Part shown: positions 2,352-44,558 of the stretch, one piece after another
Numbering within the stretch: the first letter of the stretch is position 1
Layout of the letters: every line of letters begins with the position of its first letter
Sequence record: PX063913.1
Length of the DNA: 44,574 nucleotides
Origin: a phage
Strand: one strand, 5' to 3'
Made by a program: the position numbers and the translations under genes
The notes under the pieces: model-generated
Database searches by the model: none
What the model was told of the DNA's origin: nothing
Seen by the model: the letters and a program-made list of their open reading frames with translations, nothing else

Positions 2352-2906
2352 TTATTTAAGTGCACCAGTCACTAGTGTTTTTTCCATGTTGCGGAAATCT
2401 TCCGGCGTCATGAGGATTTTAGATCCGTCTTCACCAGTGAGCACGACCATAGGCTGGACGTCCTGGGCTTCAACTCCAAAATCGCGGGCCTTAACCGTCT
2501 TGCCGAACGAGGCTACCGTGTCCTCTGCAACGCGAATTGCGCTGTTATACGCATTAATCTCGCCGTCCAGGAGCACGGACAGACCTTTGAGGCTGTCGAA
2601 TTGTGCTGCCGTTGTATCGATCTGAATCTCGTCATGCACGGTCATGTAAGACTCGCCCAGCAGGGCGGCATACGCCACCAGGTCCACGATGTTATCTTCC
2701 TGGTGCTTACGGTGCTGGCGCACCAGCTTCAGGCAGATCAGGAAGGTCCAGGCTTCTTGCTCGGTAAGGTCGCGACCGGTAAGCGCGTTAAACACGGCAG
2801 CAATTTGTTTAGCGCTGCGTTCTTCTTTCGCGTTGTCATAGCCGTTTTCTTTCCCGCGCTGTTCCATAGTGGTGGCGGCGTTTTTGCAGTATTCGAATGC
2901 TTTCAC
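2352..2906 (-). CDS. Conserved phage protein, possible all-alpha NTP pyrophosphohydrolase-like
   Basis: 184-aa ORF with GTG start at 2906 after AAGGG. Motif IAAVFNALTGRDLTEQEAWTFLICLKLVRQ...DNIVDLVAYAAL resembles conserved phage MazG-like or DUF-type proteins; assignment from memory of family motifs only. Confidence 0.4.
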   Translation of the reverse strand: MKAFEYCKNAATTMEQRGKENGYDNAKEERSAKQIAAVFNALTGRDLTEQEAWTFLICLKLVRQHRKHQEDNIVDLVAYAALLGESYMTVHDEIQIDTTAAQFDSLKGLSVLLDGEINAYNSAIRVAEDTVASFGKTVKARDFGVEAQDVQPMVVLTGEDGSKILMTPEDFRNMEKTLVTGALK

Positions 2907-2969
2907 AGTATTACCCTTTTAGTGAGGGGGCGGTATTGCCCCCGACACGTGTACTATAGTGCAACCAAC

Positions 2970-3440
2970 CTATTGGTTGCAAGTGAATTTTGCGACGTTT
3001 ATTGCGTAAATTTTCGGGACCAAATCACCACACGCCCGACGAATTGCCGCGATGTTCTTCTCGCAATCTTCAATGATGACCAGTTCAGACACGTCCGCGT
3101 AGCAGACCATTTTGAACACGGCGCACGCCTTAAACTCTGGCGGCGGGGTGTCGTCCAGCATGTGGCGCATAAACAACCTGCCTACCGGGAAGACCTCCAA
3201 TTGCTCGGCGGTGGTTTCCCAGCATTCTCGCTGCCGGTTTGTCAGATACGCGATCTCGAAGCCTTGCTCTTTATACATGCGCAGTAGCGGCAGCATATCC
3301 ATGTTAATGTCTTCGCGGACGTGCGCCTTGTGCCACTTCGCCCAGAAGGTGGATTTAGTTTTTATTCCCGGCACCAGGTCGGCACGCGCATCACTTGAAC
3401 CGTTAATAACGCCATCCAGATCACAAATCAGTAGTTTCAT
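2970..3440 (-). CDS. HAD-superfamily phosphatase
   Basis: N-terminal LICDLDGV is the canonical HAD motif I (DxDG[TV]); 156 aa, ATG at 3440. Confidence 0.65.
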   Translation of the reverse strand: MKLLICDLDGVINGSSDARADLVPGIKTKSTFWAKWHKAHVREDINMDMLPLLRMYKEQGFEIAYLTNRQRECWETTAEQLEVFPVGRLFMRHMLDDTPPPEFKACAVFKMVCYADVSELVIIEDCEKNIAAIRRACGDLVPKIYAINVAKFTCNQ

Positions 3441-4859: not shown

Positions 4860-4895
4860 TCAATATAATGCAACCAATATGCTTATGCAACCAAT

Positions 4896-7812: not shown

Positions 7813-8094
7813 TTAAGCGACCAATTCAGCAACCAATAAATCACAGTCGGCTATGTTGTCGATGATGCGAACGTCCGCACCGCGGCGGGCCATTCGCTCA
7901 TGTTCTCGTACCTGGTGCGGCTTCGGTTTGCCTCCGGGGCGCTTCACTTCGACGAAAACTATCTTGCCGTTGATGATTATTATCAGGTCGGGCGCTCCTG
8001 CGCGCCCCTCCCATGCCAGTTTTCGGCAGAATCCGCCGACGGCTTTCGCCAGCTTCATAAGGTGACTTTGAATCTTGCCTTCTGGTGTCATCAT
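7813..8094 (-). CDS. VRR-NUC domain nuclease
   Basis: GAPDLIIIINGKIVFVEVKRPGG carries a PD...(E)VK core typical of VRR-NUC; ATG at 8094 overlaps the polymerase stop (ATGA). Confidence 0.7.
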   Translation of the reverse strand: MMTPEGKIQSHLMKLAKAVGGFCRKLAWEGRAGAPDLIIIINGKIVFVEVKRPGGKPKPHQVREHERMARRGADVRIIDNIADCDLLVAELVA

Positions 8095-11330: not shown

Positions 11331-11420
11331 TTTCCAATTCCTCATTTTCACATGTATCGGGGTTATTGTGAGCCACCCCGTTCGGCTTGGTTGTTAATCT
11401 ACTTGGTTGCACCTAAGCGG

Positions 11421-14117: not shown

Positions 14118-14313
14118 GGTATATCTCCGATTGGTTAAGTTTAGGTGTCGACCATTAACTTCGTCGGTGGCCTTAACATAGAGCCAGGTTACGCGTTCTC
14201 CCTTTCGGGTAGTGGACCTGGTTATATAATCACGGTTGGGAATCCTGACACTTCGATCCGGCCCCTGCGTTGCCCCTCTCCAGTTTGCGTCCTGCATCCT
14301 GTCGACGAGGTGA

Positions 14314-14342
14314 ATATTAGATTGGTTGCAGAAGGGAGTCAA
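14314..14342 (-). promoter_or_regulatory. Leftward sigma70-like promoter
   Basis: Minus strand reads TTGACT, 17-nt spacer, TAATAT; the spacer contains the ATTGGTTGCA motif. Confidence 0.5.
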
Positions 14343-14457
14343 CAACTAATTTAAAAAAAAAGCGCCGAAGCAAAATGCGACGGCGCTAACCAATAAGAGA
14401 CAATGAGACGGGAGTATTATTACACGCGTGCGCGCCCGTTTCAATATTCCAAAGGAG

Positions 14458-14486
14458 TTGACACCCTGCGGTTTTATGTGTAGTTT
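14458..14486 (+). promoter_or_regulatory. Rightward sigma70-like promoter
   Basis: TTGACA, 17-nt spacer, TAGTTT, 30 nt upstream of the HTH gene RBS; the -10 is weak. Confidence 0.4.
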
Positions 14487-14517
14487 CGTTGGTCATTAAC
14501 CAACCGGAGACAGATTA

Positions 14518-14847
14518 ATGAATATCAACGACGCAATCGAAATGTTAACTAAGACTGTTTGCAGTGAGACTAGCCGGTCATGGGCGTATACCGATGCCGT
14601 GGGGCGGGTGCTATTTGAAATCGAACGTCTGCGCAGTGTCGAAAAAGAATTGCGCGCCAGGCTGGAATTACTCAACGGTACGGCGGCGAGCAAGCTGCAA
14701 AAGCACAATGAAGAAATGGAAGAATATAAAAAACAGGTTATCCGTTTGCGCGATGAGGGAAAGTCATGGGCGATGATCGCGGAGTTGACAGGAATTAATC
14801 AGAGCACCGTGCGCTCCTGGGTACGCAATAACAAAACTTCGAAGTAA
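14518..14847 (+). CDS. Helix-turn-helix DNA-binding regulator
   Basis: C-terminal GKSWAMIAELTGINQSTVRSWVRN is a classic HTH; first gene of the rightward arm; GGAGA RBS. Confidence 0.65.
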   Translation: MNINDAIEMLTKTVCSETSRSWAYTDAVGRVLFEIERLRSVEKELRARLELLNGTAASKLQKHNEEMEEYKKQVIRLRDEGKSWAMIAELTGINQSTVRSWVRNNKTSK

Positions 14848-14857
14848 GGCAACGGCA

Positions 14858-17122
14858 ATGAGCTTAATTAAATTCGCTGTAACACGACCCGCTAAAAAAG
14901 GCGAAAAAGCCAGGGCGGAAAACTTCCAGATGACCACCGATGAATTTTTCGAATTTATCAATGACGCGAAAGAAATCTCATCGGTGCACATCAACAAGAC
15001 CGAGGATAAAGCCGAGTATGCGCGCCGCAAGCGTAAGGCCGACGGCATCGTGGCATATACCAGTGACGGCCTCCGCCGTAAGACCAGTGCGGTTGACCGC
15101 TCGATCCTGTTCTTTGATATTGACCGCACCGACACTCGCACCTTACGCCGCTGCCGCAAAGCGTTCATTGACGCGGGTCTGGAACACGTATTCCACACCA
15201 CTACCGGCGACCGTCACCCGCTTAAAGGCGGCACGCGTTGCGCCCGTTTCCTGGTGCTCACAGACAAACCCGTACCGGCGGAAGACCTGGGCCGCGTGCA
15301 GTACGCGCTGTTAGACCAACTGGGCCTGTCTGATGTGGACTTCGACGACTGCACGAAAGATACAAACCGCCTGATGTACCTACCACACCAGCAGTCTGTC
15401 ATTAAGTGCCACTACGGAAAGCGCGCCAGTGTGCGTCGTCTGCTTCGCCGGGCTGACAAGCTGGGAGTGGAGAAAGAGGAAGTACGCCGCGAGCTTACCC
15501 AGGGCGACGACGCAGTGGCGGACGGGATTCTGGACTGGTGCTTCCAGGCAGGATTCGAGGAGTTATCTTCTGGTCGCGGTTATGAAGTGCCGTGCCCGAA
15601 CGAACATCTGCACAGCGGCGAAGGGTCGACGGCTATCATGGTCAAGGATGGCGAGATCCGTTTCAAGTGTATGCACACCGGCAACGAGTGTTGCTCTGAG
15701 CTAAATAGACACCAGCACCTGGCGCTACGTCTTATCGGGATACCGGACCACCTGAACGTCGAGCCGCACAACATGTCACGCAAGCAAATCGCCGCCATCC
15801 TCCCCGGACTGGACGACGAGGAAGTCGAATCCTTATATGATCACATTGTTGATGCGGTTGGCGACGGCGAAGAATATGGCGTGTGCACCGATGCGGATCT
15901 GGATAACGAGCCGGTCGCACTGTTCAGCAAGCACGACCCGATCATCGAGGGGTTGATTAACTTTAAATCGACCTGGTATATGGCGGGTGAGTCGAATATC
16001 GGTAAGTCTTTCTATGTGCTGGGGCAGATGGGTGCGGTTGCCGCGGGTATTCCGTTTGGCGGTGCGAAGGTCGTCCAGTCTCATTGCTTCTATTTCGACG
16101 CGGAAGGCGGCGAAGCCTCCAACCAGCGCAAAGAAGCATTGCAGATTAAATATGAGCACGACCTCGACAAGCTGCACATTATCGATCTGCAGTCACGCGG
16201 CTGGGATATCACCAGCAAATCAGGCTTGCGCGAAGTTATCAGCTTTATCAACCGCACCGCTAACGGCGAACCGGTTGGCCTGGTGGCGTTCGACTCACTC
16301 AACCAAACTGTTGCGCTGCGGTCCGCCGATGCCAAACCGTTTGACGAGAACAACGCCAGCGATATGGGTGAAGTGGTCAAAGCGCTGAAGACCATTGCGG
16401 AAAATACAGGTGGCAGTGCGGGCGTCATACACCACCCGGCGAAGGGTGCAAACGGCAGCAGATCCCCGCGTGGGTCCGGTGCGCTTCATGGCGCTGTCGA
16501 TTCCGCTTTCTTCCTGGAACAGCCGGACGACAACCAGCCGGGACAACTTAACCTGTACCACGAAAAATCACGTAACGGCATCAAGCAAGCGCCGCGTGGC
16601 TTCGTCCTGCTCAAGTGCAAGGTGGCGGTAGATCTCCGCAAGTCAGAAGCGTTCGCGTCGCACCAGTCCACCAGCACCGGGCCAGACTTCGGCGACGTAG
16701 TTGCCGGTTGGGACGTCAAACCAATTGCATCCACGCCTCGCGACGAGACTCTGTACCTCGTACCGGTCGCCCTGGCACCGTTCGCTATAGAACAGGCGAA
16801 GGCCGCGGGCAAAGCCGCAGTTAAGGAAGAAAACGCCGCTGGTCCGCGCAACGAAAAAGAGAAAGTGCTTTATGCGGCCCTGGAAAAACTGATGGAAGAT
16901 AACCCGAACCATACTGGTTTCAGTAAATCGGCAATCGTCCGCCAGGCGGGACTCGCTAAGGGTGGCACTTCGACGAAGGCAATCGACGATATGGTCGAGC
17001 GCGGCGTGATTGGTTTCTATACAGATCCGCACACCGGGGCCATCTATGGGTCGTCGAATTTAGTCATCAAATCGGATATCCCCATCACGCTTTCGGCGAC
17101 CGATGATGACCTGAAAGATTAA
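14858..17122 (+). CDS. Primase-helicase (AEP-type primase domain fused to P-loop ATPase)
   Basis: N-terminal ILFFDIDRTD and HVFHTTTGDRHP resemble archaeo-eukaryotic primase motifs; central Cys/His cluster; Walker A GESNIGKSF and Walker B LVAFDSLN in the C-terminal half. Confidence 0.75.
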   Translation: MSLIKFAVTRPAKKGEKARAENFQMTTDEFFEFINDAKEISSVHINKTEDKAEYARRKRKADGIVAYTSDGLRRKTSAVDRSILFFDIDRTDTRTLRRCRKAFIDAGLEHVFHTTTGDRHPLKGGTRCARFLVLTDKPVPAEDLGRVQYALLDQLGLSDVDFDDCTKDTNRLMYLPHQQSVIKCHYGKRASVRRLLRRADKLGVEKEEVRRELTQGDDAVADGILDWCFQAGFEELSSGRGYEVPCPNEHLHSGEGSTAIMVKDGEIRFKCMHTGNECCSELNRHQHLALRLIGIPDHLNVEPHNMSRKQIAAILPGLDDEEVESLYDHIVDAVGDGEEYGVCTDADLDNEPVALFSKHDPIIEGLINFKSTWYMAGESNIGKSFYVLGQMGAVAAGIPFGGAKVVQSHCFYFDAEGGEASNQRKEALQIKYEHDLDKLHIIDLQSRGWDITSKSGLREVISFINRTANGEPVGLVAFDSLNQTVALRSADAKPFDENNASDMGEVVKALKTIAENTGGSAGVIHHPAKGANGSRSPRGSGALHGAVDSAFFLEQPDDNQPGQLNLYHEKSRNGIKQAPRGFVLLKCKVAVDLRKSEAFASHQSTSTGPDFGDVVAGWDVKPIASTPRDETLYLVPVALAPFAIEQAKAAGKAAVKEENAAGPRNEKEKVLYAALEKLMEDNPNHTGFSKSAIVRQAGLAKGGTSTKAIDDMVERGVIGFYTDPHTGAIYGSSNLVIKSDIPITLSATDDDLKD

Positions 17123-17216
17123 TTTTTGCGCGCATTGGTTGCCATCTTGAGTGTTTTTAGCTGGTCGCATTGGTTGCCGCGTAGTGTCAATATAATGCAT
17201 AGTTATGCAATAAAAC

Positions 17217-17395
17217 TGCATAAAGTAAGCGGGACAAAAAGCGGGACAAACCGGGGGCGGGACAAAGCGGGACAGCACCCCTGTCCCGCCCCGGATGACG
17301 CGGCCTGGCGAGGAGCGGGACAGGCGGGACAACTCCCAGTCTTTCAGACTAGACGGGGGTCAGCGGCCCCCCTCGTCTGAGACTGCATAAAATCC
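17217..17395. repeat. Iteron-rich non-coding element, copy A
   Basis: TGCATAAA followed by at least six GCGGGACA units (both orientations) and a long imperfect hairpin CAGTCTTTCAGACTAGACGGGGG...CCCCCCTCGTCTGAGACTG; homologous to 34186-34355. Confidence 0.8.
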
Positions 17396-17537
17396 GGGAT
17401 TGCAAAATACACGGCAGCATGTTGCGGATTGCGGTCGTCGCTGAACTAGGCAACCAATGCGAGATGCAGAAAGTGGTGTGGAAAATGCAGTTTGCAGTTA
17501 CAGCAGATAGCGATCAACTTTTTCATGCGCGTGATTA

Positions 17538-17580
17538 ATATTGGTTGCATCCAGCCTGGCACCCTGCTATATTGGTTGCA
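17538..17580 (+). promoter_or_regulatory. Promoter-like region with two direct ATTGGTTGCA motifs
   Basis: ATATTGGTTGCAT ... TATATTGGTTGCA; TTGCAT, 17-nt spacer, TATATT fits a sigma70 promoter 20-50 nt upstream of the gene at 17601. Confidence 0.45.
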
Positions 17581-17600: not shown

Positions 17601-17780
17601 ATGAAAACCGAAATGGTTAATAAGCGCGAAATCAAGATCGGCGATACGGTAGTCCACAACGGGGAGCTTCGCACTGTGTGCAAGCGAGCGTTTAGCATAG
17701 ATGAATTTATGGGCCTGCTACTTTGGGGCGACAGCTATCGTTTAGGGCATAAACTGGTTGAGAGGGTTACGGAACTATGA
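17601..17780 (+). CDS. Hypothetical small protein
   Basis: ATG at 17601 preceded by AGGAGG; 59 aa; the track ORF extends upstream into the promoter. Confidence 0.55.
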   Translation: MKTEMVNKREIKIGDTVVHNGELRTVCKRAFSIDEFMGLLLWGDSYRLGHKLVERVTEL

Positions 17781-18103
17781 AAGCGATTATCTGGAATTAC
17801 GCAATGGCTATGGCGGCGGCACAAGAAGCGGCGGAGTTCGCCGGTGAAGGAGCGGAAGCGGTCGAAAGACTAGCGGCAGCGTGGTCCGTTGTTCGCGTCA
17901 CGCAGCAGGCCATCGCCTGTATGCTTGAGCGCCGCTTCGACACGATGGCGGAGATCCAGCCGTTGGCGAACGCTATCCAGGACTACGCGCTTGCATTTGC
18001 CCGTGAACGCCTGGCGTATCGCTTCGGGATCGGCGAGACGGCAGTGACAAACGTTGCCAGGATTAAAGCCCAGCGGGAGCTATTCGCCAAGCTTGCGAAA
18101 TAA
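17777..18103 (+). CDS. Hypothetical protein
   Basis: 108-aa ORF coupled by ATGA overlap to the upstream gene. Confidence 0.5.
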   Translation: MKAIIWNYAMAMAAAQEAAEFAGEGAEAVERLAAAWSVVRVTQQAIACMLERRFDTMAEIQPLANAIQDYALAFARERLAYRFGIGETAVTNVARIKAQRELFAKLAK

Positions 18104-18112
18104 GAGGCCAAA

Positions 18113-18382
18113 ATGACCCGTAGACGCGCAAAACAGCTTTCGTGGCATATCCCCCTGCATTGCATACGAATATGGGCTAAGAATGCGAATGCGGGGGACT
18201 CTGTGTACTGGTGCTATCGCGACGACGTTAAGCCGTTGACGCAGACTCGCTACTTGCACCAGTTCGCCGCGCAACACGATTTCAGGGTGCGGACTTCCTT
18301 GCAACCAATGGGGATTCGTATTACATTACGCCGGAAGCCCGCCGTTGAGCGGGCAGGCAAACACTGGAGACTGAGAAAATGA
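18113..18382 (+). CDS. Hypothetical protein
   Basis: 89-aa ORF, AAGAGG upstream; C-terminus HWRLRK. Confidence 0.5.
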   Translation: MTRRRAKQLSWHIPLHCIRIWAKNANAGDSVYWCYRDDVKPLTQTRYLHQFAAQHDFRVRTSLQPMGIRITLRRKPAVERAGKHWRLRK

Positions 18383-18723
18383 TTCGAGTAACCGCACGCC
18401 ACGAGCAGTCGGGGTCCACTTATGACCTTATCGACGTTCGCGGTGCGTTCATCATATTCGGACGGGGCGACGACCGCATGGCGCTGCCGATCGGCATGCT
18501 GAGCGCATACGACTATTTCAAGCATAACGTTCGGTGTGGCGACGTGCTGCGCGACAAGCACACTGGCGAACTATGGACCGTGGCGAGTATTTGGGTGAAA
18601 GACAAACGGCAGCACACGCTACTGCTTGCCCGCCCGGATGGCAAACAGCAAACTATTAACACGATTGGCCTGGTGGACTACACCCGCGTAGGCCGTAACG
18701 CAACCTGGAGACTGAGCAAATGA
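18379..18723 (+). CDS. Hypothetical protein (paralog family)
   Basis: 114 aa; shares GDVLRD...W.V...GLV.Y.RVGR with the gene at 18860; ATGA coupling. Confidence 0.5.
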   Translation: MIRVTARHEQSGSTYDLIDVRGAFIIFGRGDDRMALPIGMLSAYDYFKHNVRCGDVLRDKHTGELWTVASIWVKDKRQHTLLLARPDGKQQTINTIGLVDYTRVGRNATWRLSK

Positions 18724-18863
18724 CACCAGCACTAATGGAGGGATTCTCGCAGAAGTTTATTTCTGTTGATGCCTGCCTAGCAGATTATGAGATGGACGGC
18801 ATCGCTACTGTGTGCGATGGCGACACGAAAACTGCCGATGAGATTGAGGAGACAGAACAATGA
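18720..18863 (+). CDS. Small hypothetical protein (not in ORF track)
   Basis: 47-aa ORF with ATGA overlaps at both ends; GGAGA upstream. Confidence 0.4.
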   Translation: MTPALMEGFSQKFISVDACLADYEMDGIATVCDGDTKTADEIEETEQ

Positions 18864-19390
18864 AATTACTATTCCGCCGCAAATCAGACGGCAAAATCCT
18901 TAGACCAATACAGACCCTTGCGGCACACGTCCGCTTACACCACGCCGCGAGTGATCGGGTTTGGTGGGCGAGTAAGGCAAAGCTGTCGGAGAATTACGAT
19001 ATAGTCACGCATGATATCGAGCGCGGCGATGTGCTGCGTGATATTCGCGACGGCAGTATGTGGATCGTCGAGTATGTCGGGCTTCATGGCCTGCGTATGC
19101 AATCCCGCAAGGATGGCGTCGCCGGTATGACTTACTTCGGCCTTGTCAACTACGAACGAGTGGGCCGCAAATACAGCCTTCGTGACCGCCAGCCGCATGA
19201 GCGCGGTGCAGCCTACGACGCAAGCCAGGTGCAAGCGAAGATGGGCAACGCAGTACGCCAAATCGTCAATCGCTTTGATGCCGTGACGAAAGCACAGCGC
19301 CAGGCTGAGGAGTATGGCGTTGGATTCATCCGCGTCGAACCAGACGGCAGCATGAACGCCATCGACCCGCGCTCGGTGATTCTGAAATGA
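18860..19390 (+). CDS. Hypothetical protein (paralog family)
   Basis: 176 aa; GGAGACAGAACA upstream of the ATG; shares a domain with 18379-18723. Confidence 0.5.
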   Translation: MKLLFRRKSDGKILRPIQTLAAHVRLHHAASDRVWWASKAKLSENYDIVTHDIERGDVLRDIRDGSMWIVEYVGLHGLRMQSRKDGVAGMTYFGLVNYERVGRKYSLRDRQPHERGAAYDASQVQAKMGNAVRQIVNRFDAVTKAQRQAEEYGVGFIRVEPDGSMNAIDPRSVILK

Positions 19391-19533
19391 GTGCGGCGAT
19401 CCGTGATATGCTTCAGCACAACCGCTTCGAGATAGGCGGTCGGGTATTTCGCAATTACTTCGTGGCGCGTGCATGGGCGCGCCATATTGGCAAACCGGAA
19501 GGGGCAATTCGATGCTATACGTCTTCGCGGTAG
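19387..19533 (+). CDS. Small hypothetical protein (not in ORF track)
   Basis: 48-aa ORF starting in an ATGA overlap with the upstream stop. Confidence 0.3.
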   Translation: MSAAIRDMLQHNRFEIGGRVFRNYFVARAWARHIGKPEGAIRCYTSSR

Positions 19534-19613
19534 TATGTGGTGGCAGTCTGGCGGCCCTGGTGCTGTTGGCGTCGGTTATTAGTCTGGTTAAATACCTATG
19601 GGGCAGATTATGA
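19512..19613 (+). CDS. Small hydrophobic peptide (not in ORF track)
   Basis: 33-aa ORF MLYVFAVVCGGSLAALVLLASVISLVKYLWGRL with GGAAGGGG upstream; stop overlaps the next start. Confidence 0.3.
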   Translation: MLYVFAVVCGGSLAALVLLASVISLVKYLWGRL

Positions 19614-19897
19614 TTCATGATGTGATTTATTGGTTTGGTATGGCCAGCATGTTATGCCTGGTTACGGGAGTGCTGGGCGCAATATGGGTATTCCTGGTAT
19701 GGCCCGCCGTGGAAGCCGCCAGCATTACCCGCATGACGTTCGAAATATACAAGCGCCGTGGAATCACGGAGCACCCGACCAGGTTGCGCATGTGGTGGCT
19801 GTGGTATCGGGATATGATAGGCGGTCGAACATTCGAAGCCGTCCGATCATCCAGGTGGGAGTGGAAAGGCGTCGGCAAGTGGTCCATTTTCGATTAA
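19610..19897 (+). CDS. Membrane protein
   Basis: Hydrophobic segments; start taken at ATG 19610 (track ORF begins 19598). Confidence 0.45.
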   Translation: MIHDVIYWFGMASMLCLVTGVLGAIWVFLVWPAVEAASITRMTFEIYKRRGITEHPTRLRMWWLWYRDMIGGRTFEAVRSSRWEWKGVGKWSIFD

Positions 19898-19914
19898 TTA
19901 TGCAAGCGTGATAT

Positions 19915-19949
19915 AGTCCCAGTGAGCTAAAACTTACTGGGACTTTTTT
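19915..19949 (+). terminator. Rho-independent terminator
   Basis: Perfect 9-bp stem AGTCCCAGT/ACTGGGACT with 11-nt loop, followed by T6 directly abutting the holin ATG. Confidence 0.6.
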
Positions 19950-20240
19950 ATGGATAAGCTAAACGAGTGGCTATTCGCCCTAGCATGTCTGGCGGGTGGC
20001 TTCGTAGGCGCACGCATTCATGGTGAGGCTACGAAGGGGCCGCTAAACTTCGTTTTGTATGTGGTAGTCGGCTTCCTGTGTGCCATATTTGGCGCACCGG
20101 CTATTGCCGAGTGGGCTGGTTTGTCGGGTGAGCGCACTGTCGCCGGTTTGGGCTTCGTAACCGCAATCTTCTGGATGCCAATCGCCGACCGGATCAGGGA
20201 GACTATTGCGTCGTTCCGACTTCCGGGGGGTGCAAAATGA
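19950..20240 (+). CDS. Holin-like membrane protein
   Basis: 96 aa with three predicted hydrophobic helices, immediately upstream of the endolysin. Confidence 0.55.
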   Translation: MDKLNEWLFALACLAGGFVGARIHGEATKGPLNFVLYVVVGFLCAIFGAPAIAEWAGLSGERTVAGLGFVTAIFWMPIADRIRETIASFRLPGGAK

Positions 20241-20482
20241 TTATCTCCGTCCTGTTGTTTGTTATCATCGGGGCTTCGTCCCTGTTTAACGTGTATGCGC
20301 CGTCCGTCCAGGATGGCATTTTCGGTCGGGTGCTGTATCTGCTAACGGCAATGATCTGTATTATTGGACTGTTGCAAACCGGAGACGTATCTGATACCAC
20401 CTGGACCGCGTTAATCTGGCTGTTTGCATTGCGCACCCTGCGTAATGCTGTTTTGAATGGGGTAAAACATGCGATTCAGTGA
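20237..20482 (+). CDS. Second small membrane protein (holin or antiholin candidate)
   Basis: 81 aa with multiple hydrophobic helices; GGGGGG RBS; overlaps the endolysin start. Confidence 0.45.
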   Translation: MIISVLLFVIIGASSLFNVYAPSVQDGIFGRVLYLLTAMICIIGLLQTGDVSDTTWTALIWLFALRTLRNAVLNGVKHAIQ

Positions 20483-20960
20483 CAACGGTCTAAGATTCAC
20501 GGCAGCATGGGAGGCTTTCAGCCCGGTGCCGTATTTCGCGACCAAGAAAGAGCAGGCCCGCGGCCTGTACACCTGGGGTTATGGTCATACCGGCACTAAT
20601 CCGCCTCGAAGCATTACCCGCGAGGAAGCGCTGGCACTGCTCAAGCGCGATGTGGCGTATGCCGAGGATTGGGTGAACAAATACGCTCATAAGAGCATTA
20701 ACCAGGCGCAATTTGACGCGCTGGTGGACCTGGTAATCAACGCCGGTCCTGGTCCGATCGTACCGGATGACGTCGCGAATGATTTCGATGATGCGGTACG
20801 GTTGGGCGACTGGGCGAAGGTCCGTGCTACGCTGCCGCTGTTCCGCAAGCAAGGCGGGGAAGTGCTCAAGGGTCTGGTGCGCCGTGCGATCGGCAGACAG
20901 GCGTTGTTTGATGGCAAGCAGTGGGACGTTGCCGAGCGAATCGGTCGTAACGCTGCATAA
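20469..20960 (+). CDS. Endolysin, GH24 lysozyme-like
   Basis: FTAAWEAFSPVPYF...GLYTWGYGHTGT matches the phage lysozyme (T4-type muramidase) catalytic region. Confidence 0.75.
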   Translation: MRFSDNGLRFTAAWEAFSPVPYFATKKEQARGLYTWGYGHTGTNPPRSITREEALALLKRDVAYAEDWVNKYAHKSINQAQFDALVDLVINAGPGPIVPDDVANDFDDAVRLGDWAKVRATLPLFRKQGGEVLKGLVRRAIGRQALFDGKQWDVAERIGRNAA

Positions 20961-20976
20961 TACGAGGTGACACAAT

Positions 20977-21144
20977 ATGTTGAAAAGTATTCTTGATCAT
21001 AATGCGGACGCGCTTGCCGCACTGGCTAAAACCGAAGATCCGGGCGCACGCGCTATCATCGCGGACACTATCAGCCACGCTGGGGTCTTTGACGCGAAGC
21101 TGCCAAGCCCGCCACCGCCGGAAGAACCAGGCCCAGCGGCCTAA
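20977..21144 (+). CDS. Small hypothetical protein (not in ORF track)
   Basis: 55-aa ORF with GAGGTGA RBS, proline-rich C-terminus, followed by a terminator. Confidence 0.4.
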   Translation: MLKSILDHNADALAALAKTEDPGARAIIADTISHAGVFDAKLPSPPPPEEPGPAA

Positions 21145-21150
21145 ACACGA

Positions 21151-21176
21151 AGCCCGGTTAATTCCGGGCTTTTTAT
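21151..21176 (+). terminator. Rho-independent terminator
   Basis: AGCCCGG-ttaatt-CCGGGCT followed by TTTT. Confidence 0.65.
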
Positions 21177-21177
21177 T

Positions 21178-21218
21178 GCTTGACTCGCAACCAACATAGG
21201 GGCCATACTGCAACCAAT
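21178..21218 (+). promoter_or_regulatory. Promoter-like region with two TGCAACCAA motifs
   Basis: TTGACT then CGCAACCAAC and TGCAACCAAT upstream of the small ORF at 21239. Confidence 0.4.
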
Positions 21219-21238
21219 CAACGAGAGGAGTAATCAAG

Positions 21239-21319
21239 ATGGCACGTAAAGATATTTGGGTATTAGCGATCTGGACCACCGCGGCTTTTATCGGCATGGT
21301 TATTTGCGAATTGATATAG
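21239..21319 (+). CDS. Small hydrophobic peptide (not in ORF track)
   Basis: 26-aa ORF MARKDIWVLAIWTTAAFIGMVICELI with strong GAGAGGAG RBS. Confidence 0.4.
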   Translation: MARKDIWVLAIWTTAAFIGMVICELI

Positions 21320-21380: not shown

Positions 21381-22523
21381 ATGCACCCGCAAACTAAAAT
21401 TACCGATGAGCAATTGATCGCAGAAATTCAGGCAGGGACTACGGTTAAAGAGATTGCGAAGAAATACGGCATTGCACTTCGAAATGTCTACATGCGAAAA
21501 GCCCGCCTGTCGAAGAAAGGGATTGGTCACGGTAACGATGCCGTAATCCGTAAGCGCGTTGCCGATGGCTTTGGCGTTAAGCGCGTATCCGCCCTGGTGC
21601 GCGGCAATGGCGAAGAGGTCATGTCGTGGGTTATCACTGAGCAGGACAAGGAGCGACAGCTTGAAGCAATGCGCGCCGTTGTCGATGGCATGAACAGCGA
21701 AATCACACCGGCAGCACCAGTAAGCGCCACGCCTATCCCGATCCAGGCACTTGACCTACTCAACCTGTACACCGTGTCCGACTTCCACCTGGGCATGTTG
21801 GCATGGGGTGAGGAGACTGGCGAGGACTGGGATATGGCAATCGCTGAAGACTTGTTTTACCGCTGGTTTGTCGAAGCCTTCGCCCGCGCACCCGACGCGG
21901 GAACTGCCGTTATCAATATCCTCGGAGATATGGCCCACTTTGATAGCCTCGACGCCGTCACACCAGCAAGCGGTCACGTACTGGACGCCGACACCAGATA
22001 CCAGAAGTTGGTCCGCTATATGATCCGCATGGTGCGCAACGTGGTAGACCTGGCGCTGCAAAAACACCACAAAGTCAAACTGCTAATCGTCCAGGGTAAT
22101 CATGACGAATCGGGTATGATTTGGCTTGCTGAGATGTTCAACACGCTGTACGAGAACGAGCCGCGCGTCGATGTGGACACGTCCCCGGACGTCTACAAAA
22201 TGGTGCAGCACGGTAAGACCACGCTATTTTTCCACCACGGGCACAAAGCGCGATTCGATGCTATCGAGCAGGTTATGATCGCTAAATTCAGACAGGCTTT
22301 CGGATCCAGTGAGTACAGCTACGCGCACGTAGGCCATTTGCACCACCAGAAGATTGTCGAGTCCCGCAACATGATTGTTGAGCAGCACAGGACGCTCGCA
22401 GCGAAAGACGCCTACGCCAGCCGTGGTGGTTGGATGAGCGGTCGCAGCGCAAACGTCATCACCTACAGCGCCAACTACGGCGAAGTAGCGCGCTTAACCA
22501 TTAGCCCGGAAATGTTGAAGTAA
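21381..22523 (+). CDS. HTH domain fused to calcineurin-like metallophosphoesterase
   Basis: N-terminal TVKEIAKKYGIALRNVYMRKARL (HTH-like); phosphoesterase motifs LGDMAHFD, VQGNHDES, FHHGH. Confidence 0.6.
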   Translation: MHPQTKITDEQLIAEIQAGTTVKEIAKKYGIALRNVYMRKARLSKKGIGHGNDAVIRKRVADGFGVKRVSALVRGNGEEVMSWVITEQDKERQLEAMRAVVDGMNSEITPAAPVSATPIPIQALDLLNLYTVSDFHLGMLAWGEETGEDWDMAIAEDLFYRWFVEAFARAPDAGTAVINILGDMAHFDSLDAVTPASGHVLDADTRYQKLVRYMIRMVRNVVDLALQKHHKVKLLIVQGNHDESGMIWLAEMFNTLYENEPRVDVDTSPDVYKMVQHGKTTLFFHHGHKARFDAIEQVMIAKFRQAFGSSEYSYAHVGHLHHQKIVESRNMIVEQHRTLAAKDAYASRGGWMSGRSANVITYSANYGEVARLTISPEMLK

Positions 22524-22569: not shown

Positions 22570-22653
22570 GTGCCTGTTATAATCCACCTTAGATGGCAGG
22601 GCCGTCTCCTATGTTGCCGATGGTCGGCGCATATGAACAAAAGGGCTTATATC

Positions 22654-27657: not shown

Positions 27658-28422
27658 TTAGCGAGGAATGCCGCAAATCTCGTTGAGTGTTTTCACATCC
27701 AGCGCCACCGCCGTGGATTTTGGCTTGTCCGGGTAAGGGATGAATTGCTCAACTTCAGGCCATGCCTTGATCAGCTTCTTATCGGTATTGTGCATATCCA
27801 GCACGCCGGTAACAGTTAGTTTGAACGCGTCATACTTAGCCCGCAACTCGCGGCGGGCCTTGTCGTTACGGTCCAGGCGCTTGCAGAAATCATGGTCCGC
27901 CGGGTAGTCTATACGGCCGCGTGGCTTATATATCGGCAGCGCTTTCCCATCCTCGTCCAACTCGCACACTGACGCTAACATAATTTCCTCATACCCAGGT
28001 ACGATATCGCCGAGATCAGGAGACAGCTTATTCATGTATTTATACTCCCAGTATCCGCGATGTACGCGGTATTGGCGACCGTCACCGCTCAAGGACAAGG
28101 TGCGAACATTTCCGCCTGCGTTGATTTCGAAAGTGGCGTCGTAAACGCTGCCGATACCTTTCGGGCGGTCGGTGTTATAACTATACGTCGCCTTGTTGGT
28201 GTATACACAGACGCCGTACATCTGCGACGGGTCATCGCCGATTGCTTCAATGCGCGCGAGTAGCTCGGCGAACGTGCGAATGCCTTCTGGCATACAGTCC
28301 AGCGTAATGGCGTACGCCAGGTCGCGCGAGTCCATCATTATTGATTTGGCTTCTGTCGCGATTTCGTGGTCGCGCAGGATGTTAGCCAGGATCTGATTTT
28401 TAATGTCTTTCGTCAGTCTCAT
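27658..28422 (-). CDS. Hypothetical protein, reverse-oriented gene inside the structural module
   Basis: 254 aa from ATG 28422 (MRLTKDIKN..., GAGGA upstream); own promoter region with ATTGGTTGCA motifs and a bidirectional terminator; no recognisable motifs. Confidence 0.55.
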   Translation of the reverse strand: MRLTKDIKNQILANILRDHEIATEAKSIMMDSRDLAYAITLDCMPEGIRTFAELLARIEAIGDDPSQMYGVCVYTNKATYSYNTDRPKGIGSVYDATFEINAGGNVRTLSLSGDGRQYRVHRGYWEYKYMNKLSPDLGDIVPGYEEIMLASVCELDEDGKALPIYKPRGRIDYPADHDFCKRLDRNDKARRELRAKYDAFKLTVTGVLDMHNTDKKLIKAWPEVEQFIPYPDKPKSTAVALDVKTLNEICGIPR

Positions 28423-28444
28423 TTTTGTGTCCTCGTTGTTGGTG

Positions 28445-28469
28445 TGCAACCAATATATTGCAACCAAGA
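28445..28469. promoter_or_regulatory. Divergent promoter region with two TGCAACCAA motifs
   Basis: TGCAACCAAT-atat-TGCAACCAAG between the minus-strand gene (start 28422) and the scaffold gene (start 28572). Confidence 0.4.
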
Positions 28470-28571
28470 CAAGGATGGCAAGCTAATTTTGCGATTATTT
28501 TTATCGCTGATAATATTAGAAGCGTGAAGTCGAGCGGGTGGCCTGCTCTGCCACAATCCCAGGGGGATAGC

Positions 28572-34041: not shown

Positions 34042-34152
34042 AGCGGGACAGGCGGGACGTCCCGTTTTGTCCCGCTCCGCTAAAACTGCATATTTACGCA
34101 CCACAATTGCATAAACTAAAAGCGGGACAGGCGGGACGTCCCGTTTTGTCCC
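34042..34152. repeat. Tandem palindromic GCGGGACA elements
   Basis: Two copies of AGCGGGACAGGCGGGACGTCCCGTTTTGTCCC (34042-34073 and 34121-34152), each with the perfect palindrome GGGACGTCCC, separated by an AT-rich spacer with TGCATA motifs. Confidence 0.8.
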
Positions 34153-34185
34153 ACCCCCAAAATGTGAATGTCTATTCAGTTTTAG

Positions 34186-34355
34186 TGCATAAACTAAGCG
34201 GGACAAAAAGCGGGACAGAATGAGGCGGGACAAAGCGGGACAGCACCCCGTCCCCGCCAGTGCTGCCGCGGGTTTTAGCCGATCGGGACAGGCGGGACAA
34301 AGCCCAGTCTTTCAGACTAGACGGGGGTCAATGGCCCCCCTCGTCTGAGACTGAA
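34186..34355. repeat. Iteron-rich non-coding element, copy B
   Basis: About 85 percent identical to 17217-17395: TGCATAAAC, GCGGGACA units, then the same imperfect hairpin with a different loop. Confidence 0.8.
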
Positions 34356-34421
34356 TAAGGTTTGTTTTAAATTCGCTGATACAATGACCGACGGCAACTG
34401 CATAAAAAGGGGGACTGCATA

Positions 34422-43285: not shown

Positions 43286-43306
43286 GGGGCCAGATGGCCC
43301 CTTTCT
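43286..43306. terminator. Bidirectional rho-independent terminator
   Basis: GGGGCC-agat-GGCCCC followed by TTTCT, between the convergent J gene and the minus-strand gene. Confidence 0.6.
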
Positions 43307-44270
43307 AATACATGTTAGGGATGACTAGTAAAGGTGTGGGTACGGTCACATTACGATTAGGCATCTGGAATTGCTGCCGTGAGTAGTTACCGATCACGCG
43401 ATTTCGTGCCGCGCTAACCACGTTGCCAGCCATGCGTATCCCGTTCATTCGCACGTGGTTGTATCCGCTGTTGTTCTCAATGAGCGCGCCGGTATATGAG
43501 AGCTGTACGAGGCTGTTGCCAATATTCTGACCACCAGTGCTGATATTAATTACGGAATTGAGGACAAACGGCTTATTCACCGTGGAGAACGTGACCTGGC
43601 CCTGGTTGTTAGTCATGGTAATGCCGGTCCCCGGTGCTGGCGGCGTATTGTTGAAGATCACCAGGTCCATATCCACCGAAGCCGCCACATCGTCAATACC
43701 ACCATAGGACGCGTTGCGGACGATAATACTACCGCCGTCGAATCCTACCGACACGTTGCCGTCATCCCAGCGCGCGAACGGGATGCCACCCACCGGCAGC
43801 GGCATACTGCCGTTTACACGCACGCGCTGCGCGTATCGGCAGGTCATTAGCCGGGATACGTTCGATATCGCGGTGAAGTCAGTCGAGTTCGCCACCAGTA
43901 AGCCAGCATTGCGCGACCCAACCGGCAGCACTTCCATAATTATCCCAGCCCATTGCGGAAGACCACTGTATGCGTTATACGCGTCCGCACCTCGTAGAAT
44001 AATGCCGTTATCCCCGTTACGTTGTACAGACGTAACGTAGAATGGGTCCGGGAGCACCAGCGTTTGGTCGAAGACCTCAATCACTTCTACCGGACGCGTG
44101 AGCGCAACGACAAGATCCGACCCTGGGGTTAGCGGAGTATTAATGGTCAGCGTCTTATCGGACTGGCAGCGCTGATCAAACGTAGTGCAGTATGACGGAG
44201 CGCGAAGTCCGGCGGTTATCTCCATCACCGGCCTTCCGTCGTTGTAGTCTATAAGTATTCCAGCGCCCAT
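43305..44270 (-). CDS. Candidate receptor-binding protein
   Basis: 321 aa from ATG 44270 with GGGAG at 8 nt spacing; Gly/Asn/Ser/Thr-rich; sits 2 nt downstream of the lipoprotein gene on the opposite strand to gpJ, as in T5-type RBP-Llp loci. Confidence 0.45.
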   Translation of the reverse strand: MGAGILIDYNDGRPVMEITAGLRAPSYCTTFDQRCQSDKTLTINTPLTPGSDLVVALTRPVEVIEVFDQTLVLPDPFYVTSVQRNGDNGIILRGADAYNAYSGLPQWAGIIMEVLPVGSRNAGLLVANSTDFTAISNVSRLMTCRYAQRVRVNGSMPLPVGGIPFARWDDGNVSVGFDGGSIIVRNASYGGIDDVAASVDMDLVIFNNTPPAPGTGITMTNNQGQVTFSTVNKPFVLNSVINISTGGQNIGNSLVQLSYTGALIENNSGYNHVRMNGIRMAGNVVSAARNRVIGNYSRQQFQMPNRNVTVPTPLLVIPNMY

Positions 44271-44272
44271 AA

Positions 44273-44494
44273 TTACCACTCCCGAGATTTAACTGATACC
44301 GTACCAGAGAAGTTGCCGTCACTATCCGCGGACAGGCCGGTGAAGCGCATGTCAACATCCCCGGCAGGGGCTTTTTGCCCGTCAACGTAGCGCAACATGC
44401 AGCTACCGTAAGCGACCGTAATGCAATCGCCGTTGTTACGTTCTACCGCACAGCCGGACAGAAGAACCGCACAAATCACAATTAATGTTTTCAT
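44273..44494 (-). CDS. Small lipoprotein, candidate superinfection-exclusion protein (Llp/Cor-like)
   Basis: ATG 44494 with AGGGGA RBS; signal peptide MKTLIVICAVLLSGC with lipobox LSGC; mature part about 54 aa with two further cysteines. Confidence 0.55.
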   Translation of the reverse strand: MKTLIVICAVLLSGCAVERNNGDCITVAYGSCMLRYVDGQKAPAGDVDMRFTGLSADSDGNFSGTVSVKSREW

Positions 44495-44547
44495 GGTATC
44501 ATCCCCTATATTTGGTTGAGTTTTAGTATTGCACCGCTCGACCAGGA

Positions 44548-44558
44548 TTGCAACCAAT
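44548..44558. promoter_or_regulatory. ATTGGTTGCA motif in the promoter region upstream of the lipoprotein gene
   Basis: TTGCAACCAAT at the window end, upstream of the minus-strand lipoprotein gene; would also lie upstream of the fibre gene at nt 1 if the genome is contiguous. Confidence 0.4.

Follow-up and report, generated by a model that had tools for sequence, protein, structure and literature searches.

An asymmetric 10-bp motif dispersed over the early promoters of a Dhillonvirus coliphage, a candidate operator of the helix-turn-helix protein gp52

The operators of lambda Cro are pseudo-palindromes of 17 bp, bound by a dimer and confined to two loci, and the octamer of the CytR repressor, GTTGCATT, occurs as direct or inverted repeats in which variable spacing is tolerated, flanked by the cAMP-CRP sites that CytR needs. 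In the cluster A mycobacteriophages (L5, TipsytheTRex) one helix-turn-helix (HTH) protein, gp71, acts on 13-bp asymmetric sites present in about 20 or more dispersed copies, and the sites of L5 are oriented with transcription and inactive when reversed (PMC9283540). The MotA box of phage T4 lies in a single register, 12 ± 1 bp upstream of the -10, and marks activated promoters (PMC2988021). Here we describe a repeated asymmetric motif, ATTGGTTGC(A), in the phage sequence record PX063913.1, whose 44,574 nucleotides were analyzed as a whole and are called the window below. Megablast placed the window in the genus Dhillonvirus, with 90–95% identity to the Escherichia phages SSL-2009a, JL1 and EP23; it is an HK578/SSL-2009a-like coliphage, a siphophage, virulent as judged from its gene content. 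By analogy, the repressor of the cluster A mycobacteriophages with its operators and stoperators is the closest match in layout, and lambda Cro the closest in logic. As no named family fits, the finding was placed in the general class of phage HTH regulators with promoter-embedded operators.

The motif is strongly over-represented. With dinucleotide-preserving shuffles of the window as the reference, 10 exact copies of the 10-mer ATTGGTTGCA were counted where 0.11 were expected, none of 100 shuffles reached 10, and 17 copies with at most one mismatch were found against an expectation of 2.99. An earlier note on this DNA had set the chance expectation of the 10-mer far below one copy, as was found, and had named a lack of enrichment in a statistical scan as the outcome that would count against it; the scan gave the opposite result. 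Every site position given in that note was checked and proved correct, although its list omitted 18300–18309 (-), the pair 7828–7837/7816–7825 (-), and 11402–11411 (+) with 11386–11395. Noncoding DNA makes up 6.3% of the window and holds 15 of the 19 exact TTGGTTGC cores (binomial P = 3 x 10−15). The note's statement that all copies are intergenic is thus true of most of them and not of those at 2972, 7828 and 18300, three of the four coding cores, which lie in the last codons of the upstream gene and yet in the promoter of the next gene directly downstream. Since the bases flanking the motif vary among copies, the unit is an asymmetric 9–10-mer, (A/G/C)TTGGTTGC(A/C/G/T). The 10-mer has no dyad symmetry, and 20 sites are dispersed over 11 regions.

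All copies except that at 17449 fall within a sigma70-like -35/-10 arrangement 5' of a gene, often just past an intrinsic terminator (Table 1; P_ stands for the promoter of the gene named). Promoter positions are consensus predictions throughout, with +1 defined as seven bases past the predicted -10. Several registers recur. In the forward register -40 to -31 (P_gp36, P_gp41, P_gp54 and P_cor) the TTGCA(T/A/G) of the motif is the -35 hexamer, and a reversed register at -35/-34 (P_gp30 and the gp56-internal promoter) works because TTGCAA is its own reverse complement. A further register, -23 to -14 (or -22 to -13), ends 0–1 bases short of the -10 and is used in either orientation (P_gp30, P_gp36, P_gp07, P_gp51 and P_gp46), another covers the -10 and +1 (P_gp54 and P_gp07 at -9 to +1, P_gp65 at -7 to +3), and three more sites lie at -34 to -25, -30 to -21 and -28 to -19. 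Twelve sites point in the direction of transcription and 8 against it, so that orientation is indeed not fixed, as had been noted earlier.

Single sites (14321, 44549 and 18300) and pairs, direct or inverted, were both found, which differs from a dyad operator of the lambda CI/Cro type. The sites at 4869 and 4886 form a direct pair on the minus strand, those at 17540 and 17571 another direct pair, and 2960–2981 is an inverted pair with 9-bp arms (TGCAACCAA/TTGGTTGCA) and a 4-bp spacer or, read as 10-mers, GTTGGTTGCA(-) and ATTGGTTGCA(+) 2 bp apart. Pair centres are spaced by 12, 14, 17, 23, 31 or 35 bp. The recurrent registers account for the spacings between assigned sites (12, 14, 17, 23 and 31 bp), and the 35-bp gap, 17134–17169, involves a site with no assigned register. 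Neither the fixed position nor the fixed orientation of a plain sigma70 element was seen, and only the -40 to -31, -35 to -25 and -9 to +1 classes overlap a hexamer; this overlap agrees with the caveat of the earlier note, since in two registers the motif is also promoter sequence, through TTGCA as the -35 and through ATT as the end of TATATT. Given the several registers, both orientations and an in-place flip in the relative slur05, the motif is not a single RNA polymerase recognition element. These features and its invariance at ~71% nucleotide identity uphold the earlier description of an operator-like site and not a plain -35/-10, and on this sequence evidence it is well supported that the motif works as a protein-binding operator rather than as a plain promoter element.

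Table 1. Coordinates of motif sites, promoters and genes in the window
Feature	Position	Strand	Register or remarks
Site GTTGGTTGCA, P_gp30	2960–2969	-	-23 to -14, 1 nt short of -10 TATAGT (2958–2953)
Site ATTGGTTGCA, P_gp30	2972–2981	+	Reversed, -35 to -26; TTGCAA is the -35 hexamer
Site, P_gp36	4869–4878	-	-23 to -14, abuts -10 TATATT
Site, P_gp36	4886–4895	-	-40 to -31; TTGCAT is the -35
Degenerate site ATTGGTCGCT, P_gp41 (Lar-like gene)	7816–7825	-	-28 to -19
Site ATTGGTTGCT, P_gp41	7828–7837	-	-40 to -31; TTGCTG is the -35; within last codons of gp42
Degenerate site CTTGGTTGTT	11386–11395	+	Just 3' of the P_gp46 -10; CTTGGTTGCC there in relatives
Site CTTGGTTGCA, P_gp46 (SSB-like gene)	11402–11411	+	Reversed, -22 to -13, abuts -10 TAGATT
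Single site, P_gp51 (leftward early promoter, TTGACT-17-TAATAT)	14321–14330	+	Reversed, -23 to -14
Site ATTGGTTGCC	17134–17143	+	Right behind helicase-primase stop codon, 5' of P_oriB; preceded by GC
Site ATTGGTTGCC	17169–17178	+	-34 to -25 of promoter with -10 TATAAT (17191–17196); preceded by GC
Site ATTGGTTGCC	17449–17458	-	Noncoding region 3' of helicase-primase gene; conserved; no clear promoter
Site, P_gp54	17540–17549	+	-40 to -31; TTGCAT is the -35
Site, P_gp54	17571–17580	+	-9 to +1, over -10 TATATT and predicted start
Site within gp56 coding sequence	18300–18309	-	Reversed, -34 to -25 of internal promoter TTGCAA-17-TACATT (18299–18327)
Degenerate site GTTGGTTGCG (2 mismatches), P_gp65	21186–21195	-	Reversed, -30 to -21, directly 3' of -35 TTGACT
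Site, P_gp65	21209–21218	-	Reversed, -7 to +3; pairs with 21186
Site, P_gp07 (Nmad5/moron promoter)	28445–28454	-	-9 to +1
Site CTTGGTTGCA, P_gp07	28459–28468	-	-23 to -14; pairs with 28445
Single site, P_cor (Cor-like lipoprotein gene)	44549–44558	-	-40 to -31; TTGCAA is the -35
P_gp52 and leader	14458–14504	+	Partial palindrome GTTGGTcattaACCAAC at 14488–14504, a weak or partial site
Extended -10 promoter TGTTATAAT, 5' of terS	22575–22583	+	Right after terminator; no motif
Extended -10 promoter of same type, scaffold	28508–28516
Extended -10 promoter of same type, tape measure	34377–34385
AACCAA(T/C) leader, gp51	14130–14139
AACCAA(T/C) leader, gp52	14488–14504
AACCAA(T/C) leader, gp54b
AACCAA(T/C) leader, gp65
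AACCAA(T/C) leader, gp07
AACCAA(T/C) leader, Cor-like gene	44510–44518
DNA-metabolism block, gp51 to gp29	14117 down to 1734		Leftward
Divergent control region	14118–14517
gp52	14518–14847	+	Start of rightward block; 109 aa: variable N-terminus, long helix (residues 21–79), C-terminal three-helix HTH
Helicase-primase gene	14858–17122		Rightward block
Small genes and lysis cassette	17601–21319		Rightward block
Metallophosphoesterase gene	21381–22523		Rightward block
Structural operon	from 22633		First gene terS
Nmad5-domain protein gene	27658–28422	-	Embedded minus-strand gene
DUF6453 protein and Cor-like lipoprotein genes	43305–44494	-	Embedded minus-strand genes

Conservation was assessed in six Dhillonvirus genomes (the window, SSL-2009a, slur05, CHD5UKE2, Sodalis phage SO-1 and HK578). 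The earlier note had suggested a motif search in related genomes; run here as k-mer counts, it returned the same 10-mer as the top or joint-top 10-mer in all six, with 9–10 exact copies and 16–18 with at most one mismatch in syntenic places. In alignments of nine control regions from these genomes, 148 of 162 motif columns (91%) were invariant, against 942 of 1371 other intergenic columns (69%; Fisher P = 6 x 10−11). The pair spacers at P_gp07 and P_gp54 differ among genomes and the sites do not; the exact copy at 18300, in a promoter that serves the gene next to gp56, is invariant in the six genomes. In slur05 the promoter-proximal site of P_gp30 has kept its position but is inverted there, with TGCAACCAAC in place of GTTGGTTGCA.

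Four metagenomic relatives (L008, L010, L012 and L134) share the gene order and only ~71% nucleotide identity with the window. ATTGGTTGC was the sole top 9-mer in L008, L010 and L134, and in L012, a half-length locus, it tied with several 9-mers, with its 8-mer core GCAACCAA clearly on top. The copies occur in the same promoters and in the same registers, and their number, spacing and orientation are reshuffled locally: the site at 14321 is a tandem double in L008, L010 and L012, and L008 has two reversed sites 3' of the helicase-primase gene against two forward ones in the window, although it preserves the 17-bp period of the 4869/4886 pair. Even degenerate sites persist, that at 7816 being kept in the six Dhillonvirus genomes and in L008, L010 and L134, and the arrangement with the degenerate site of P_gp65 recurring in the same three relatives. 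In the Guernseyvirinae outgroups Tsm2 and phiEap-2, whose helicase-primases are 43–46% identical to that of the window, the motif does not occur as a repeat, and none of comparable spread was found. The motif is therefore real, enriched, promoter-located, orientation-free and conserved far beyond background, and these comparisons indicate that it is under strong purifying selection over a lineage much wider than the genus. One copy in L134 (9256–9264) overlaps a start codon (AGGAGTGCAACCAATGG), which may reflect occasional recruitment at a translation start, or chance.

It is very likely, from the distribution and conservation of the sites, that a protein binds them. A Pfam scan of 38 window proteins, with nearly all the non-structural ones included, gave a sequence-specific DNA-binding domain above threshold in gp52 only (HTH_23, HTH_28 and Sigma70_r4_2, residues ~65–105). 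Moreover, in a phylogenetic profile of 35 proteins, with presence scored where the fetched DNA of a motif genome covers the position of the protein, gp52, gp38 and gp60 alone occurred in every motif genome and in neither outgroup. The gp38 methyltransferase was discarded as binder due to its absence from L134, and gp60 due to its hydrophobic N-terminal segment and its position beside the holins, from which it was read as a membrane protein. The HTH protein to which the earlier note had pointed thus stands as the sole candidate that passes the profile test. Promoter overlap, conservation beyond background and co-occurrence with a DNA-binding protein, as in the generic class of operators of phage-encoded HTH regulators, were all found. 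What connects gp52 with the motif is its co-occurrence and its domain content, since a covariation test failed to discriminate, and gp52 is somewhat favoured as the protein that binds.

The AlphaFold model of gp52 (mean predicted local distance difference test score of 86) consists of a short helix, a 59-residue helix (residues 21–79) and two C-terminal helices that complete the HTH. A weak sequence match in the Protein Data Bank (PDB) to coiled-coil segments of vimentin suggests that the long helix may be a coiled coil. With Foldseek only the last 35–45 residues superpose, at a root-mean-square deviation of ~1 Å, the counterparts being the DNA-binding domain of DeoR and the C-terminal three-helix HTH domains of sigma region 4, LuxR/GerE proteins and serine recombinases. 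The whole chain had no significant match (E > 0.6); together, the PDB sequence search and Foldseek returned nothing beyond generic small-HTH or coiled-coil matches. Homologues were found only in Dhillonvirus-like genomes, and they form a very narrow family: clustering at 90% identity gives 24 clusters and at 50% leaves 3 full-length representatives, and a profile search of 1.8 billion representative proteins retrieved 3 full-length representatives, the remaining matches being confined to the HTH. Lineages differ in the N-terminal ~45 residues, through replacement or strong divergence; the central and HTH segments hardly vary, and G.S..I...TGIN.ST(V/I)(R/K).W is still present in a homologue with 43% overall identity. 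Residues 1–45 (14518–14650) are hypervariable or exchanged even among phages that are nearly identical elsewhere, with three or more unrelated N-termini, one of them a form 40 residues longer in HK578 and CHD5UKE2.

Database labels of gp52 homologues include transposase, resolvase and Gam (nuclease) inhibitor. The protein itself lacks a sigma region 2, a receiver domain and the catalytic domain of recombinases, and the labels are unsupported by the domain content seen. Ksap1, the Dhillonvirus protein sensed by KpAvs2, was considered as an identity for gp52 and rejected as receiver-like and unrelated, and the small DNA-binding proteins encoded 5' of the helicase-primase in the outgroups are not homologous to gp52 and were dropped as its counterparts. 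The metallophosphoesterase (Metallophos), with a weak GerE-like N-terminus, was likewise rejected as binder, being absent from L008, L010 and L134. This 380-residue protein is annotated as a 'DNA repair exonuclease' and has a sub-threshold GerE/LuxR-type HTH at residues 14–46; its gene adjoins the late operon on the 5' side, and the SO-1 annotators called its homologue a putative transcriptional regulator.

Repression is the probable effect of the binder. The motif promoters look competent for sigma70 unaided (TTGACT-17-TAATAT, TTGACC-17-TAGATT, TTGCAT-17-TATATT), and repression is the likelier sign because nearly all of them hold at least one site between -30 and +3. As the sites cover the -35, the spacer beside the -10 or the -10 and +1, a bound protein should exclude polymerase. 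The circuit that we propose is one in which an asymmetric 9–10 bp operator, present in one or two copies in each of at least 11 sigma70-type promoters, would be bound by gp52. These promoters, among them nearly all early and middle ones of the phage, drive early and middle genes (DNA metabolism, replication, small genes, lysis) and moron genes, and bound gp52 would exclude the host RNA polymerase from them, so that they would be turned down as gp52 accumulates, in a Cro-like manner but genome-wide. If gp52 dimerizes by way of its long helix and its HTH domains are only loosely tethered, this would account for the tolerance of paired sites to any orientation and spacing.

The gene for gp52 is the first of the rightward early operon and lies behind a near-consensus promoter, TTGACA-17-TAGTTT (14458–14486). 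At about +3 to +12 of this promoter, L008 and L010 carry a full site, (T/C)GCAACCAAT, and L012 a one-mismatch site, CGCAACCAAC; these sites, with the partial one of the window, suggest that gp52 autoregulates its own promoter. Late transcription would escape. The only promoter-like feature 5' of the terS, scaffold and tape-measure genes is an extended -10 (TGTTATAAT, TGATAATAT and TGATACAAT, respectively; consensus TGnTAnAAT), with no -35 and no motif, each directly behind a terminator or within a gap in the late operon. By their predicted sequences these late promoters are a class distinct from the motif-bearing early ones, and the type is conserved at 71% identity, the terS promoter reading TGATATACT in L008, L010 and L012. 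In L134 it reads TGTTATACT, followed by a two-mismatch motif copy that overlaps the -10, so late promoters are not site-free in every relative. Needing no -35 contact and carrying no site, the late promoters would be spared by gp52, and an early repressor that blocks -35-dependent promoters while -35-independent late ones continue would constitute a simple temporal switch. Taken whole, the reading of ATTGGTTGC(A) as a multi-promoter operator at which a gp52 repressor tunes or shuts off early transcription has, in our estimate, about an even chance of being right.

Compared with the described systems, the motif shares with the cluster A operators and stoperators the layout of many dispersed asymmetric copies in promoter and intergenic DNA (9–10 bp here). 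It differs in that L5 is temperate and gp71 its immunity repressor, whereas the Dhillonvirus phage is virulent; in that the L5 sites depend on orientation, whereas 12 forward and 8 reversed sites, the slur05 flip and the orientation flips in L008 were found here; and in that most L5 sites are elongation blocks outside promoters, whereas all but one of ours lie in core promoters. Unlike gp71, a two-domain monomer with an HTH and a stoperator domain, gp52 is predicted to have a long helix and one HTH, and neither the PDB sequence search nor Foldseek revealed a sequence or fold relationship between them. Under the proposed logic gp52, like lambda Cro, would be the small HTH product of the first gene of an early operon, acting on operators over early promoters, its own included; unlike the Cro operators, the sites here are asymmetric, used in both orientations and at variable spacing, and spread over at least 11 promoters.

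Several observations weigh against a gp52 repressor. A generic promoter scan of the window gave no enrichment over shuffles. Each gp52 chain has one HTH, for which a 10-bp asymmetric site is long, and the site may suit gp52 only with a contribution from a flanking arm or a second subunit. Among the homologues, P0025 from L134 is the most diverged (43% identity); its helix 2 and its recognition helix carry several substitutions, yet L134 keeps the same motif ATTGGTTGC. This is the case in which the covariation test did not discriminate; an unchanged motif beside P0025 is consistent with gp52 as the binder, and is no proof of it. Small proteins with no recognized domain could be the true binder. 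Finally, the forward -40 to -31 register at four promoters would also fit an activator or a -35 substitute.

The last point leads to the alternative that the motif is a positive element, at which gp52 or another phage factor recruits or re-targets the host RNA polymerase so that the motif promoters, as a class specific to the phage, are switched on, much as with the MotA box of T4 middle promoters. Besides the four forward sites at -40 to -31, two more lie at -35/-34 to -26/-25 over the -35 position; the -35s that the motif supplies (TTGCAT, TTGCAA, TTGCTG) match TTGACA at only 3–4 of 6 positions, and the gp52 HTH has a Pfam match to Sigma70_r4_2, the domain responsible for -35 recognition. 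Like the MotA box, the motif is a 9–10 bp phage-specific asymmetric box over the -35 of many promoters that keep a sigma70 -10. MotA boxes, however, lie 12 ± 1 bp from the -10 (PMC2988021), whereas the Dhillonvirus motif occupies several registers, the -10/+1 one included, in both orientations and with one site flipped in place, and 3 of the 20 sites lie at about -35 to -25. At least 10 sites are in the spacer beside the -10 or over the -10/+1, positions at which polymerase and a bound protein would collide, and several motif promoters already have a near-consensus -35 (TTGACT, TTGACC). Neither the Pfam scan of the 38 window proteins nor a PHROG scan of 20, both by sequence only, gave a match to a MotA/AsiA-like family. 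We consider activation of this kind unlikely.

Exploitation by the phage of a site for a host transcription factor or nucleoid protein, for instance a CytR-like repressor, would account for a motif that stays constant where the gp52 HTH has diverged. The motif includes the GTTGCA core common to CytR operators, the site at 4869 matches GTTGCATT at 8 of 8 positions, and free orientation with variable spacing is a property of CytR operators as well. A CytR operator was nevertheless rejected: the best-conserved part of the motif, ATTGG, lies outside the octamer, the 3' TT of the octamer is not conserved (4–8 of 8 matches among sites), and CRP-like sites are unassociated, with 1 of the 11 in the window falling within 70 bp of a site. 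As for host factors at large, the motif follows the phage lineage, a Sodalis phage included, and is missing from the Guernseyvirinae outgroups of other Enterobacteriaceae (Serratia, Enterobacter), which makes such an origin decidedly unlikely.

An account with no extra factor, in which the 10-mer is the shared -35/-10 of duplicated promoters kept by selection for promoter strength, is very unlikely. It does explain the TTGCA that serves as -35 at -40 to -31 and the ATT that completes TATATT at -9 to +1, and genomes ~90% identical within the genus provide some conservation for free. But the sites at -23 to -14 and at -30 to -19, and all the reversed ones, coincide with no element recognized by polymerase, ATTGG at -40 to -36 has no known role, and the slur05 flip preserves the 10-mer and not the strand; moreover, motif columns are more conserved than the remaining intergenic DNA, and the motif persists at ~71% identity while promoter spacers are rewritten.

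A role of the copies in replication, as iterons or as sites where the helicase-primase or gp52 would bind an origin at the 17134–17580 cluster, is highly improbable. Five copies do lie in the 480-bp noncoding region just 3' of the helicase-primase gene, flagged as a repeat region by the SO-1 annotators, and the unrelated contig L024 packs ~10 copies of CTAATTGGTTGCATC in an iteron-like manner; fifteen further copies, however, are spread genome-wide over 10 other promoter regions. The same noncoding region holds a separate classic family, GCGGGACA, whose place is taken by GGTGCCA-type repeats in L010 and L134 with no change in ATTGGTTGC, so that the hallmarks of origin iterons, a cluster at a single locus that changes with the replication module, were not found for the motif. 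The weakest alternative, that the motif acts as RNA, in hairpins or leaders such as UUGGUugcacACCAA at two transcript 5' ends or with the 2960–2981 palindrome as a terminator, is scarcely credible: ATTGGTTGCACACCAAC (17571 and 28445) and 2960–2981 can form stems and ACCAA(T/C) precedes the Shine-Dalgarno of six promoter-proximal genes, but most sites lie 5' of the predicted start and so are untranscribed from their own promoter, single sites lack a complement to pair with, the sites occur on both strands, and an Rfam scan of the whole window found no family.

The GCGGGACA family itself comprises 7 copies at 17229–17331, 3' of the helicase-primase gene and in the direction read by the promoter that holds site 17169, and 8 copies at 34043–34300, in a noncoding stretch of ~380 bp between the frameshift-extension reading frame of the tail chaperone and the tape-measure gene. 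A hairpin of ~50 bp, CAGTCTTTCAGACTAGACGGGGGTCA..CCCCCCTCGTCTGAGACTG, is common to both regions, which the SO-1 annotators named repeat regions A and B; they look like duplicated origin-like elements, one of them oddly inside the tail operon. Between the first iteron cluster and P_gp54, the motif copy at 17449 is kept in L010 and, in the opposite orientation, in L134. A scan of viral contigs for paired sites returned mostly 27-bp coding tandem repeats and chance matches. In L024 (IMGVR_UViG_3300038463_000167), a 19-kb contig of 56% GC content, the ~10 CTAATTGGTTGCATC copies at 2750–3180 form, with GGTTGCATC half-repeats, a 430-bp cluster in both orientations that resembles an origin or a partition site, and Pfam recognized no HTH protein near it.

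The gene map was obtained by tblastn with the annotated SSL-2009a proteins. Exactly 6 of the 48 genes examined, all of them first behind a motif promoter, have AACCAA(T/C) 3–10 nt 5' of the Shine-Dalgarno. At gp51, gp52 and the Cor-like gene these weak half-sites lie between the predicted start and the Shine-Dalgarno. In function the six could represent weak half-operators on the downstream side, or else an RNA element of the leader. The two-site P_gp07 (28423–28470) is conserved, and the genes it drives differ between phages (L001, L003, L004 and L007 were compared): the Nmad5 protein alone, an extra 110-residue gene, a RusA/beta-clamp-like gene or an unrelated longer insert. It looks like a fixed regulated promoter before a hotspot of moron insertion.

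Dhillonviruses are common coliphages in therapy panels and in research on defence systems (the BASEL collection, including KarlBarth and GeorgBuechner, and the SECphi phages), and roughly 150–190 records of related phages turned up in the sequence searches. Full-text searches of the literature (the motif string, Dhillonvirus promoters and named phages) gave only primer matches or genome reports with no promoter analysis, and no description of a Dhillonvirus transcription programme was found among them; the motif and its circuit are apparently undescribed in that literature. The circuit would be new, yet familiar in kind: useful, testable and unsurprising. The annotation of gp52 homologues as transposase, resolvase or Gam inhibitor seems to be in error, and the candidate pair of a compact 109-residue protein and a 10-bp site may be of use in phage engineering or as an orthogonal switch. 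A more specific version, rather doubtful in our view, is that gp52 acts as a stand-alone sigma-region-4-like module, in competition with sigma70 region 4 and with spacer contacts at TTGCA-containing operators. If so, the developmental switch of the phage would amount to a simple contest: the -35-dependent early, middle and moron promoters would all be progressively occluded through one orientation-indifferent 10-bp operator, with the -35-independent extended -10 late promoters remaining active, and the hypervariable N-terminus would be a surface that evolves on its own, for instance towards a partner or a target in the host, or to evade immune sensing. In any case, the analysis supplies a regulatory map for these phages, with at least 11 operator-bearing promoters, three operator-free extended -10 late promoters and one candidate regulator.

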